64,000 nt of DNA from Escherichia phage A7_1, in the sequence record OP795442, one strand, 5' to 3'. Below the pieces are notes generated by a model. That model saw only the letters and a list, made by a program, of their open reading frames with translations, was not told the origin of the DNA and did not search any database. Positions 24,032 to 59,167 of this stretch are shown in pieces (the first letter of the stretch is position 1; every line of letters starts with the position of its first letter). The position numbers were made by a program, and so were the translations under genes.

Positions 24032-25143
24032 ACCTTGTCTTGTGCCTCCAGGATAAGTTTTTCAACAATCTTCAGATCTGTTTTCTTTGGTAAGCTCGAT
24101 TGCTTATAAAGAACATCTGTGATCATTTTATCTTTTTCTTCAGCCCACTCAACAATTTCTTCATAGCGGTATTCACCATTTCGGATTGCGAGGAGTTCTT
24201 CAGCGTCTGGTCGATTCACTAAAACTTTACCTTCTGTGAGGATTTCTTCACCCATCCGAAGAAGCCGGACCAAATGCATAGCATGTTTAGTGTCGTAACC
24301 GAACTTCTCTTCCAGTTCATGACGCTTCTCGTTACGATTCTTAACCCACTCCCAGTAGTTGTGGTGTTTCTCCTTGGCCCATTTATGATCGTCAGCACAA
24401 TACTTAACAATCATCAGAGTCTTGCCTCTTTTAACTTCCTCTGGGATTTCTTCATAGTCTAGCTTACGGATAGAACCATCTTTATTAAACATTGGTTGAA
24501 CATCTTCACTACGATCTTCTACAACACCGTAAATGTTACCACCGTAAGGAACCAAAGTACAGAAGCCTTCCATGTTTTTAAATTTACGAACAAAGTCTTC
24601 GTACTTCAACTCACCTTCTCCGAGATAGCTCTGCACCAGACGGAAATAGTCAAATTGAGTTGGTGGCTCTTTTGGTTGCGGATTATTAATGTGTTTGTTG
24701 TGACCCTTGATCCGCTTTAACTGAGACATTGCATAACCACTGAAGCGAAATGCAACTTCACGAGACAGTAAGGAGTAGAAATGTTCTTTCATCTCTTTCC
24801 AAGCTTCGTGCTCGTACAATGTGGCTTTCGGATCAGTAAAACCCAGTTCAATGATATTTGGGTTCATCTTCGAAAACAGTTGAAGGAAAGTTCCCAATTC
24901 GTAGATCTTGGCATCCTCTTCACCAGGGATGTTTAATTCAGTAACCTCTTTGAATGGGGTACGAACCACATTTGGGGTTGCAACAAAAACCCCACGGATA
25001 TCAATATCACTACCTTCGTTATTCGTACCATACGCATGAGATCCTGCCAGACTCAACATCAGTACCTTCGCTACGTCTGGATGCTTTTCCATCTTCTCTA
25101 CGATACTTTTTACCTTTCCAGCACTCACAACTGAATTTTCCAT
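24016..25143 (-). CDS. Pol-beta-superfamily nucleotidyltransferase-like protein (375 aa)
   Basis: N-terminal GSHAYG...SDIDIRG motif (GS-x-D-x-D). Confidence 0.45.
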   Translation of the reverse strand: MENSVVSAGKVKSIVEKMEKHPDVAKVLMLSLAGSHAYGTNNEGSDIDIRGVFVATPNVVRTPFKEVTELNIPGEEDAKIYELGTFLQLFSKMNPNIIELGFTDPKATLYEHEAWKEMKEHFYSLLSREVAFRFSGYAMSQLKRIKGHNKHINNPQPKEPPTQFDYFRLVQSYLGEGELKYEDFVRKFKNMEGFCTLVPYGGNIYGVVEDRSEDVQPMFNKDGSIRKLDYEEIPEEVKRGKTLMIVKYCADDHKWAKEKHHNYWEWVKNRNEKRHELEEKFGYDTKHAMHLVRLLRMGEEILTEGKVLVNRPDAEELLAIRNGEYRYEEIVEWAEEKDKMITDVLYKQSSLPKKTDLKIVEKLILEAQDKVWKET

Positions 25144-26029: not shown

Positions 26030-26485
26030 TTACCCCTGTTTAAGCTTAAAAGATTTAAAGGCTTCGATAAAGTCCATTTCTTTTTGCGTGTATTTGTGGT
26101 CAATTGTATCAGCGAAAAGAGGGCAACGACCATCAACCAACTTCACATCCCACAGATGTTGAGGGAGAATAAATGCAATGGCTGTAAGTGCACCATTCAA
26201 AGAATCATTCTCCTCGCAGAAAAATGCGTAAGGAATCTTCTCTATGTTTGGAGCTAAAAATCCTTCTGCAAAATTAAGCATCTTAGATTGATAGCCTCCG
26301 TTCAACAAGATCATTGTTTGGTCTTTGCTTTGCCACTGATCTACAAGGTTGTATCTGTCATCATATCGATCGGCATAGGCAAAGCCATAATGACCTACAA
26401 GGTTTGCTGCTGCATGTGCTGCTTGGATACCTGCTTGGATTCCCATCATGTAGCTGTTTACCAATACGTACATCCGAGTTTTCAA
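26030..26485 (-). CDS. hypothetical protein, possibly peptidyl-tRNA hydrolase (Pth2)-like
   Basis: N-terminal MGIQAGIQAAHAA pattern recalled from PTH2; weak. Confidence 0.3.
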   Translation of the reverse strand: MKTRMYVLVNSYMMGIQAGIQAAHAAANLVGHYGFAYADRYDDRYNLVDQWQSKDQTMILLNGGYQSKMLNFAEGFLAPNIEKIPYAFFCEENDSLNGALTAIAFILPQHLWDVKLVDGRCPLFADTIDHKYTQKEMDFIEAFKSFKLKQG

Positions 26486-26802
26486 TTCTTACCTCCGAAA
26501 ATTCTTTTTGCAAATTTTTCATTACCTAACGTCATGTTGTAGAAAACTATAATTGAATAGACAATCCACGCAAGGACATAAAATAAAATCAAGAAAGGCC
26601 AGCCCACAAACCAAAACACTGTCATTATTAACCAGCCCGTCATAAGGAGTTTATAATTAACATTCCCGTGATTTAAAGGGTCAAGTAAGTTACTGTTCTC
26701 TGGCAGGGTGATACGAAACCCACCTTGACGAAGCTTGATCAAAAAGAACCAAGCAGCAGAACTTATAATGCAACATAAAATATATATCAGTAATCCTGTC
26801 AT
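26482..26802 (-). CDS. hypothetical membrane protein (106 aa), tandem paralog A
   Basis: FLLIKLRQGGF motif shared with neighbour; two TM segments. Confidence 0.5.
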   Translation of the reverse strand: MTGLLIYILCCIISSAAWFFLIKLRQGGFRITLPENSNLLDPLNHGNVNYKLLMTGWLIMTVFWFVGWPFLILFYVLAWIVYSIIVFYNMTLGNEKFAKRIFGGKN

Positions 26803-27128
26803 TTTTTAACTCCGAAGATCTTAGATAGTAATTTATCATTCCCGATAGTTACACCACAAAAACTTTTTACTCCGTATACTAGATACGACCCGATTGTAAC
26901 ACAGATAATGATCGGATAAACAAGATACCAAAAGAATGTTGCAAGTATCCACCCTGCCATCACCATACGTAAATTTACATTTTCGTTATTCAGTGGCTCC
27001 AGGATATAAATATCCTCACAATCTTTTGGGAAGGGGATGTTAAAACCCTTCTGTCGTAATTTGATCAGTAAGAACCAAAGCGGGCAACTGATAAAACAAC
27101 CGATCAAATAACCTTCAACCATTTTCAC
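26799..27128 (-). CDS. hypothetical membrane protein (109 aa), tandem paralog B
   Basis: FLLIKLRQKGF motif shared with neighbour. Confidence 0.5.
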   Translation of the reverse strand: MKMVEGYLIGCFISCPLWFLLIKLRQKGFNIPFPKDCEDIYILEPLNNENVNLRMVMAGWILATFFWYLVYPIIICVTIGSYLVYGVKSFCGVTIGNDKLLSKIFGVKK

Positions 27129-28894: not shown

Positions 28895-28944
28895 CGTATT
28901 CTCCTAGTTGATGACTATCATTATACACATCCCCGAATTCAAGT

Positions 28945-28973
28945 CAACAAAAAAGGCCACCCGAAGGTGACCT
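28945..28973 (-). terminator. intrinsic terminator
   Basis: Hairpin with GAA loop followed by T-run on minus strand. Confidence 0.5.
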
Positions 28974-28979
28974 TTAAAT

Positions 28980-29489
28980 TTAAGGGTGAATCCAGTAAAA
29001 AGGTTTTGTTAAACCAAGCTTACCTTTCGGGTCCCAAATGAAGTAGGCATACGCCGCACCATCTGTTTTCCCATCCTCAGTAAAAGAGGGTCGCTTGGAT
29101 AGAGTAACCAAATGATCAACAGGATATTCCTTCCAGAACTCCACACGTTTGGTACTCTCAAGGAAACCTAAACGAAGCAGCATTATCACCACATCAGCAT
29201 CCTTGTGAGCCTTCTCTACAAACTCTTGAGCTAAATTATAAGGTGGGTTAGTTAACACACAATCTACCTTATTGTATTTAGTTGCAAGATAATCAACACC
29301 TTCTTGAATCTCTCCCCAAGCTGAACCAATTGGCATTTCATTATAAAAACGTCCAGAGGCTCTGCAAGGTTCCAGATAAGTCCAATCCTGACGGATTGGA
29401 ACTAAATTCAAGAAAGCATCTACTGCCCATTTCGGAGTTTCATAGCGATCATTTTCACGGCGTTCTGCTTTAGGTTTCAATGCTGCCAC
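28980..29489 (-). CDS. small DNA N6-adenine methyltransferase (Dam-like)
   Basis: NPPY catalytic motif (TNPPYN). Confidence 0.65.
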   Translation of the reverse strand: MAALKPKAERRENDRYETPKWAVDAFLNLVPIRQDWTYLEPCRASGRFYNEMPIGSAWGEIQEGVDYLATKYNKVDCVLTNPPYNLAQEFVEKAHKDADVVIMLLRLGFLESTKRVEFWKEYPVDHLVTLSKRPSFTEDGKTDGAAYAYFIWDPKGKLGLTKPFYWIHP

Positions 29490-29491
29490 TC

Positions 29492-30337
29492 TTATTTGCC
29501 CCCTTCTTTTGCCGCAGTGATGATCTGCTCAATCAATTCATCACGATAATAAACATACTGTTCAACACCGAAACATTCTGCAATCTCGTCTAACTCTTCG
29601 AGGTTGTATTCGTCAAAGTCTCGCGGGTTAAGAGTGAAGATGTTGAATTTTTTGGCGTAGCCTTCGTCAAGGACGATTTCAAATTCTCCTTCTCCGATTT
29701 CCTTCTCATCATCAACATTACTCGATTCGATTGGCTCTTCAACCTTAATCCCCCCTGTATTTTGTTGATCGGCTTCCATTTGCTTTTTAATTGCTTCATC
29801 TTCAGCGGTCAGACGGGCTTGCATCTGAGAGGAAGTAAAGTAAATTTCGCCAGCACGATCAAACAGTTCAACGAGTTCATCTTCTGTCATAACACCCTTG
29901 TACAGATCGTAGTATTTCTCTTTGAACAGGTCTTTGTAGAAATCGCTACGTTTAAATACCAGTGCCGAGTCACCGCCCATACTCATCTGAACGTTGTGGA
30001 ACATATAATGAGAACCTGGACGACAAATTCGAACATGACCGGATAAGAAGATCATTGTTGCAGCACTTGCCACTTCACCAATACCGTGTGTTACAACAGT
30101 CGCCTTTGTTTCAGAGATCGCTGTCATGTACATATCGGCGATATCACAATAACCACCACAAGAAGTAATGTATAGATTTACAATATCACCTTCGGGCGCT
30201 GAACGAATCAGGTCAACAGCCTCGATATGTGCTTCAGGTGAATTGTGCAGGTCCGTAACATAAATACGCCAATCGTTAGAAGTTACTGGAGACACCCAAA
30301 TGTTTTTTGCCGGACCATTCATTACGATTTCTTCCAT
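29492..30337 (-). CDS. ClpP-like serine protease (S14-type) with acidic C-terminal extension
   Basis: Resembles ClpP around catalytic Ser (GEVASAATMIF) and His (HYMFHN), from memory. Confidence 0.5.
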   Translation of the reverse strand: MEEIVMNGPAKNIWVSPVTSNDWRIYVTDLHNSPEAHIEAVDLIRSAPEGDIVNLYITSCGGYCDIADMYMTAISETKATVVTHGIGEVASAATMIFLSGHVRICRPGSHYMFHNVQMSMGGDSALVFKRSDFYKDLFKEKYYDLYKGVMTEDELVELFDRAGEIYFTSSQMQARLTAEDEAIKKQMEADQQNTGGIKVEEPIESSNVDDEKEIGEGEFEIVLDEGYAKKFNIFTLNPRDFDEYNLEELDEIAECFGVEQYVYYRDELIEQIITAAKEGGK

Positions 30338-59004: not shown

Positions 59005-59117
59005 GACTTTAAATTTAAAAAATTTAGTATAAAATCTATAAAAGATCCTTTAAGATCTGTAGATCATATATAAAAAGATCTTATAAAAGATCTTGTTTTT
59101 ATTGTTTTTAATAATAA

Positions 59118-59167
59118 TTATGAATGAAATGAATAATTATTATATAATTTATGAATGAAATGAATAA
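59118..59167. repeat. 19-bp perfect direct repeat TTATGAATGAAATGAATAA, 2 copies
   Basis: Copies at 59118-59136 and 59149-59167. Confidence 0.85.

Follow-up and report, generated by a model that had tools for sequence, protein, structure and literature searches.

A close and experimentally characterised counterpart of the gene analysed here is carried by the Vequintavirus Bas51 (Escherichia phage WalterGehring, MZ501111). Nakamura et al. (PLoS Biol 2025, PMC12548924) isolated Bas51 mutants that escape retrons Asa1 and Squ1, and engineering D69G, D79G or T83P into a methyltransferase of this phage abolished retron defence. Native nanopore sequencing of Bas51 DNA yielded 6mA sites with a GATC logo, and GATC m6A was almost lost in the T83P mutant (PMC12548924). 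The enzyme is toxic when overexpressed, and its demonstrated cost to the phage is that it methylates retron RT-DNA and triggers abortive infection; when the retron is absent, the methyltransferase mutants plaque on K-12 like wild type (PMC12548924). Our searches of the literature on Vequintavirus 6mA, on rV5 GATC methylation and on SMRT sequencing of orphan methyltransferases found nothing relevant, and the Druantia and Zorya papers as well as those on retrons Eco2 and Eco7 are silent on this gene.

Other points of comparison are M.TaqI and the gamma-class enzymes (Eco57I PF07669, N6_Mtase PF02384, HsdM), the alpha-class Dam enzymes of E. coli and T4 (PF02086, MethyltransfD12), and the phage "Dam" families PF05869 and TIGR01712, which comprise small phage N6-adenine methyltransferases. 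We compared with these systems a gene for an orphan N6-adenine methyltransferase located in a 64,000-nucleotide stretch of Escherichia phage A7_1 (OP795442), hereafter the window. Between nucleotides 27000 and 32000, the window shares 97.1% identity with Escherichia phages A73 and W70 and 94% with LTH01, A5-4 and UPEC06. These phages, and with them the window, belong to the Vequintavirinae, in the proposed genus Septuagintavirus (PMC11370258). The paper describing this genus relies solely on an InterPro N6-methyltransferase signature when it mentions the methyltransferase, to which it assigns no specificity (PMC11370258). The W70 orthologue has 99.4% amino acid identity to the window protein, with identical neighbours, and the A73 copy is already annotated as "DNA N-6-adenine methyltransferase" (A73_221); these are essentially the same gene as that of the window, and nothing substantive differs between them. 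Since the A73 and W70 copies are annotated and the activity of an orthologue is published, the finding that this rV5-like E. coli phage encodes a DNA adenine methyltransferase of very small size is already known, and it is correct but ordinary.

Organization of the methyltransferase gene

The coding sequence extends from 28980 to 29489 on the minus strand (169 aa, 19.7 kDa; TAA stop included) and is present in the list of open reading frames exactly as the original prediction described it, with the NPPY motif at residues 81-84 (nt 29238-29249). Translation would start at a GTG codon, which is credible because it lies 2 nt past the stop of the upstream gene, because an AAGGGGG Shine-Dalgarno sequence is found 9 nt upstream, and because the N terminus (MAALKPK..) aligns residue for residue with those of ATG-started orthologues (MTCARKP..). 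The upstream gene codes for a ClpP-like protease (29492-30337, minus strand; PF00574, E=3.5e-8; phrog_5410), and the order protease-then-methyltransferase is kept in Certrevirus and Vequintavirus. A strong intrinsic terminator hairpin predicted by a terminator scan at 28952-28975 (minus strand) begins 5 nt past the methyltransferase stop and consists of a 10-bp stem with a TTCG loop followed by a T-run; the methyltransferase gene is therefore the last of a leftward transcription unit. As this unit also carries NrdD/NrdG, PhoH-like, DprA-like and ClpP-like genes, the enzyme is expected to be expressed together with DNA-metabolism functions and to act on replicating DNA.

Directly after the terminator (28975-28952), a near-consensus sigma70 promoter (TTGACT-16-TATAAT, 28947-28920, minus strand) restarts transcription for the next gene. 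This terminator-promoter pair (28920-28975) forms a compact junction between the methyltransferase unit and that of a CCA-adding enzyme. Just downstream of the CCA-adding enzyme gene sits a pair of overlapping tandem paralogues (26482-26802 and 26799-27128, minus strand) coding for hydrophobic proteins of ~106-109 aa, both assigned to phrog_17692, a group of unknown function.

Scanning the ten neighbouring open reading frames (26.0-31.9 kb) against PHROG and Pfam identified a hydrolase, the two small paralogous unknowns, the CCA-adding tRNA nucleotidyltransferase, the ClpP-like protease, a DprA-like protein and four other unknowns. None of the ten matches a nuclease family and none is HsdS-like, and no nuclease gene lies beside the methyltransferase in annotated relatives. 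The absence of an adjacent restriction enzyme, as had been claimed from the sequence, is thus borne out, and with no nuclease gene nearby with which to form a restriction-modification pair, the methyltransferase is an orphan.

Conserved motifs and predicted structure

We aligned the protein with its relatives (48 homologues) and classified positions as invariant, conserved in at least 90% of the sequences, or near-invariant. Invariant or near-invariant positions are D14, Y16, T18, P19, E40, P41, C42, G64, D66, D76, T80, N81, P82 and P83 and, in the C-terminal half, L104, L105, R106, R115, S131, K132, R133, P134, S135, F136, G140, T142, D143, Y147 and W152. The first motif, Y16-E-T18-P19 (29433-29444, minus strand), in which T18 is invariant and Y16 and P19 are conserved in at least 90% of the 48 sequences, is the counterpart of V21-E-T-P in M.TaqI, and positions 16-87 of the family profile are collinear with M.TaqI residues 21-111. 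Motif I, E40-P-C-R-A-S-G46 (29352-29372, minus strand; E40, P41 and C42 in at least 90%), forms a loop after strand beta1 (38-40) in the AlphaFold2 model and would be the SAM-binding loop, judging from the class I methyltransferase fold. The motif III acidic residue D66 (29292-29294, minus strand) is near-invariant in the family and aligns with D69 of the Bas51 enzyme. Strand beta4 carries the catalytic motif IV, D76-C-V-L-T80-N81-P-P-Y84 (29238-29264, minus strand), in which N81, P82 and P83 are invariant and D76 and T80 correspond to D79 and T83 of Bas51. Finally, R133-P-S-F136 (29082-29093, minus strand; R133, P134 and S135 invariant, F136 in at least 90%) lies where the beta6-beta7 loop (residues 131-146) begins, a loop that the model places between strands 126-130 and 147-152.

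The AlphaFold2 model (pLDDT 92, pTM 0.88) shows a class I Rossmann fold reduced to its essentials, whose strands lie at 38-40, 75-80, 98-106, 126-130, 147-152 and 164-167 and whose connections from beta1 to beta4 are very short. It contains no additional domain, and 17 residues follow strand beta7 before the C terminus. Matches in the BFVD viral fold library are limited to unnamed or generically named phage methyltransferases.

A large family of minimal methyltransferases

The protein matches the PHROG 799 "DNA methyltransferase" HMM over residues 1-168 (E=4.3e-63, 215 bits). Pfam and NCBIfam scans of the single protein gave only sub-threshold matches: 13.8 bits against a cut-off of 28.1 for the phage Dam family PF05869 (E=0.046), 13.3 against 25.3 for Eco57I PF07669, a match below threshold to EcoRI_methylase, and 13.6 against 97.05 for TIGR01712. 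The Dam family PF02086 gave no Pfam match to the window protein even at E<=10, nor did it match any of the 48 relatives scanned singly at E<=0.1; these relatives gave weak matches to EcoRI_methylase (38/48) and to PF05869 (29/48, best E=5.8e-5). The sub-threshold matches of the window protein are confined to the region around motif IV. Likewise, searches of Pfam, NCBIfam and PDB sequences with either the single protein or the 48-sequence profile returned nothing significant, with sub-threshold matches around NPPY, and none of the 120 database relatives listed carries a precomputed Pfam domain. Because these sequence matches are all sub-threshold, family placement rests on PHROG, fold and orthology. 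The interpretation of the protein as an N6-adenine methyltransferase is supported.

These results delimit the relationship with each of the described groups. The protein resembles the phage "Dam" families in being of similar size (profiles of 165-169 positions), orphan and phage-borne and in having an NPPY-type motif IV, whereas it scores far below their cut-offs and matches them only around that motif. It shares with E. coli and T4 Dam the likely product, G-m6A-TC, and the orphan status; it differs from them in being ~100 residues shorter and in having only 34 residues between G46 and N81, with no inserted domain where the alpha-class enzymes have their recognition domain between motif I and DPPY. 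By the sequence tests applied, it is a member of PHROG 799 and of neither the Dam (PF02086) nor the phage Dam (PF05869) family. The description "Dam-like" given in the original prediction is apt for the function predicted by orthology, GATC m6A, and not for family membership, given the lack of a PF02086 match and the scores below cut-off for PF05869 and TIGR01712. As in gamma-class enzymes, an N-terminal xTP motif, motif I and motif IV (NPPY/F) occur in collinear order in a matching catalytic-domain fold, and the M.TaqI-like layout YETP, EPCxxSG, D, NPPY is kept; on the other hand, the Eco57I score stays below the gathering threshold, most of the helical segments that would join beta1 to beta4 are absent, and the protein, at 169 aa compared with 421 aa for M.TaqI, has neither a C-terminal target-recognition domain nor a specificity subunit.

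A profile search against 1.84 billion cluster representatives (clusters at 50% identity) retrieved 673 at E<=1e-30, 8,621 at E<=1e-10 and 15,914 at E<=1e-3. Almost all are stand-alone proteins of 155-220 aa. Homologues are found in 547 phage records, including Vequintavirus (~60% identity), Phapecoctavirus (~44%), phages of Vibrio, Aeromonas, Campylobacter, Listeria and Staphylococcus, and cyanophages. The residual interest of the gene lies in this very large family, which lacks a target-recognition domain and has neither a Pfam model nor a solved structure, and with 169 aa and no recognition domain the window protein would be among the smallest sequence-specific DNA methyltransferases. In many GenBank records named "Campylobacter phage" (MG0656xx), the methyltransferase gene is 99.6% identical to that of E. 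coli rV5-like phages; these records are probably mislabelled or contaminant assemblies that make the family seem to span more hosts than it does. Rare members are fused, such as a 492-aa protein with a PAPS-reductase-like domain N-terminal to the methyltransferase domain. The PHROG 799 profile spans 458 positions, which implies an N-terminal extension of ~200 aa in many members.

Orthology to the Bas51 enzyme and specificity for GATC

The Bas51 gene bas51_0176 codes for a 177-aa "putative N6 adenine methyltransferase" that shares 60-62% identity with the window protein along the full length (169-171 aligned residues) and, as in the window, is encoded directly downstream of a ClpP-like protease gene. 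Its residues D69, D79 and T83, the last followed by NPPY, align with D66, D76 and T80, which are near-invariant in the family. The two enzymes are thus of the same size class and share their motifs, their genomic position and the residues essential in Bas51. They differ by genus (Vequintavirus versus Septuagintavirus), by start codon (ATG versus GTG), by a 2-residue insert in the G-loop of the Bas51 protein (CRNSASG) and by a 6-residue C-terminal tail. On the strength of full-length identity, synteny and conservation of D69, D79 and T83, the window protein is the orthologue of a characterised GATC m6A methyltransferase, and we consider it highly probable that the gene encodes a GATC-specific DNA m6A methyltransferase. 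The specificity is carried over from an orthologue only 60-62% identical, a distance at which specificity may change.

The best-surviving alternative, which we hold to be unlikely though not negligible, is that the protein is an active DNA N6-adenine methyltransferase whose target has drifted from GATC or become relaxed since the split from Vequintavirus. Besides the modest identity to the Bas51 enzyme, such drift would fit differences in the beta6-beta7 loop at 137-139 (TED versus QSN) and in the 120-130 segment, as well as the size and diversity of the family (8,621 clusters at 50% identity, E<=1e-10), whose hosts have such different methylation backgrounds (Vibrio, Campylobacter, Listeria, Staphylococcus and the hosts of cyanophages) that a single motif family-wide is improbable. 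Against it, every family-invariant loop (40-46, 55-68, 76-90, 131-136 and 140-152) is shared with the Bas51 enzyme, synteny is conserved, and ClaI digests of the DNA of Certrevirus CB7 are consistent with GATC methylation, although the host of CB7 is presumably dam+ too. Regarding a relaxed target, Vequintavirinae are very sensitive to EcoRI, EcoRV and type I and type III restriction-modification systems (PMC8594841). A non-specific methylase would protect EcoRI and EcoRV sites, so the sensitivity of relatives to both enzymes fits an enzyme acting on GATC only and argues against non-specific adenine methylation. An activity of the M.EcoGII/Hia5 type, conceivable for a protein that lacks a recognition domain, was considered and rejected on these grounds and on the clean GATC logo of the orthologue. 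A broad anti-restriction role is not supported (PMC8594841).

With the GATC-specific enzyme as the preferred reading, the specificity would be transferable to the Septuagintavirus and Certrevirus copies, with limited practical value. DNA of these phages is predicted to resist MboI and DpnII and to be cut by DpnI, and the phages are predicted to trigger retrons whose RT-DNA carries GATC.

Distribution of GATC sites and the 59044-59092 cluster

The window contains 396 GATC sites, that is 1.7 times the mononucleotide expectation, 1.56 times the expectation from dinucleotide shuffles (254; z ~9.5) and 1.05 times that of a trinucleotide Markov model. Selection for GATC sites across the window was rejected because the excess vanishes under the latter model, which points to codon usage (GAT, ATC) as its source instead of site selection; GATC is simply not avoided in the window. 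Under the trinucleotide Markov model, the palindromes CTAG (O/E 0.45), CCGG (0.59), CGCG (0.63), CATG (0.70) and GTAC (0.80) are depleted and TGCA (1.10) is not.

The densest group of sites in the window comprises five GATCs in AAAGATCY boxes at 59044-59092, within an AT-rich region between two near-consensus divergent sigma70-like promoters, one leftward (TTGACA-17-TATAGT, 59004->58976, minus strand) and one rightward (TTGACA-16-TAAGAT, 59252->59279, plus strand). The cluster is located 40-88 bp upstream of the -35 element of the leftward promoter, beside a 31-bp tandem repeat. By count alone it is borderline, as GATC is very frequent in the window (P=0.07 for a maximum of at least 5 in 50 bp under uniform placement); within its own intergenic region of 27% GC, GATC is ~5-fold enriched relative to dinucleotide shuffles (P=0.001). 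The homologous intergenic region is also GATC-enriched in CR3, CB7, SSBI34 and F1M1E (5-6 sites, P=0.0015-0.0075), and the partly shifted positions of the sites among these related phages suggest selection for GATC density. In CR3, CB7 and F1M1E, two GATCs align in the region that matches the spacer of the leftward promoter, the CR3-side promoter being read by eye. The cluster is likely a substrate of the methyltransferase and may have a regulatory role.

The two units of the tandem repeat (59106-59136 and 59137-59167; core ATGAATGAAATGAATAA) lie between the divergent promoters. The 31-bp repeat is near-invariant across Septuagintavirus, Certrevirus and Salmonella phage SSBI34 and could be an operator or an iteron.

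A stronger proposal is that the methyltransferase and the cluster constitute a dedicated epigenetic switch, the methylation state of the cluster governing either the divergent early promoters or a site of replication or packaging, by analogy with oriC/SeqA, P1 oriR or P1 pac. The density and local enrichment of the cluster, the maintenance of a GATC-rich state at shifted positions in CR3, CB7, SSBI34 and F1M1E, the adjacent strong leftward promoter and near-invariant repeat, the two GATCs in the spacer region of CR3, CB7 and F1M1E, and a minimum of the cumulative GC skew at 58-60 kb would all be in keeping with it. The skew minimum coincides with a switch in transcription direction, which explains it equally well and makes it uninformative, and a DnaA-dependent origin at the cluster was rejected as there are no DnaA boxes in the intergenic region of the window. 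Moreover, the Vequintavirus Bas59 has an orthologous enzyme and 666 GATC sites but no cluster of at least 4 in 60 bp and no GATC cluster at its divergent junction, host Dam could serve the same sites, and Bas51 methyltransferase mutants plaque normally. We therefore regard such a switch as improbable. The suggestion that the cluster is a target of the enzyme stands insofar as it is real, the densest in the window, locally enriched and a likely substrate, whereas a special link between enzyme and cluster is unproven since Vequintavirus has the one without the other.

Proposed mechanism and biological role

An RNA m6A methyltransferase of the METTL5/Erm/KsgA or TrmN6 type, acting on rRNA or tRNA alongside the nearby CCA-adding enzyme, would share the fold of rRNA and tRNA m6A enzymes (METTL5, Erm, KsgA/Dim1), and METTL5 and Erm indeed score as well as M.TaqI in fold comparisons, so that fold alone cannot separate DNA from RNA enzymes; yet M.TaqI, HsdM, MmeI, BseCI and CamA score equally well, neither Pfam RrnaAD nor any other RNA methyltransferase family matches the window protein at E<=10 and its model contains no extra domain, loss of the Bas51 orthologue removes GATC m6A from phage DNA, a terminator and a separate promoter part the gene from the CCA-enzyme unit, and Vequintavirus has the methyltransferase while rV5 has no CCA enzyme (PMC7344957), which makes this reading very improbable.

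As a GATC methyltransferase, the protein would be a stand-alone, SAM-dependent enzyme with a minimal class I Rossmann fold, and its most likely target is the A of 5'-GATC-3'. SAM would be held by the N-terminal YETP segment, the G-loop EPCRASG and the acidic residues E60 and D66. The M.TaqI residues equivalent to those of the G-loop and acidic positions contact the ribose and adenine of the cofactor. NPPY (81-84), located on strand beta4, would accommodate the flipped target adenine, and R133-P-S-F136 may contact the flipped base. Because there is no recognition domain, the reading of GATC would fall to the beta6-beta7 loop and the basic N terminus, as no other conserved elements of the surface are available for it; the loop (SKRPSF..G.TD..Y, 131-147), probably with the basic N terminus, would stand in for a separate recognition domain.

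That the Bas51 mutant grown on K-12 loses nearly all of its GATC methylation implies that host Dam lags behind phage DNA synthesis. A putative benefit of the phage enzyme is to render phage DNA refractory to restriction enzymes of the DpnII/MboI type, to MutH attack and to SeqA binding, all of which involve unmethylated or hemimethylated GATC. Counterpoints are that the host itself is dam+ and that Bas51 mutants plaque normally on K-12. A GATC methylase encoded by the phage itself is retained despite the dam+ background of the hosts and the exposure to retrons that it entails.

We are doubtful of a more ambitious model that would bring these elements together, in which a structurally uncharacterised class of minimal GATC methyltransferases, devoid of a target-recognition domain and of a Pfam model, reads its 4-bp site by the beta6-beta7 loop and is paired in Certrevirus and Septuagintavirus with the GATC cluster as a methylation-sensitive switch. 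By methylating a control or origin region quickly and completely, where host Dam is unable to maintain methylation, the phage enzyme would then prevent sequestration of the SeqA type or cleavage by MutH.

Vequintavirus phages encode a second adenine methyltransferase, which in Bas51 is the 272-aa product of bas51_0200. The possibility that this protein is the published Bas51 enzyme was rejected, as it has Q, A and I in place of D, D and T at positions 69, 79 and 83; across the Bas51 and Bas59 proteins, the corresponding residues are K/Q, A and I. No homologue of this enzyme was detected in the window by tblastn, which is a further difference from Bas51. It is a gamma-type protein of 268-272 aa (VEPSAGxGSF ... 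GNPPFG) encoded at 14207-15013 in Bas59 and at 24070-24888 in Bas51, next to a gene for a DnaQ-like exonuclease, and it may account for the GTAC m6A that was quantified together with GATC in the Bas51 study.
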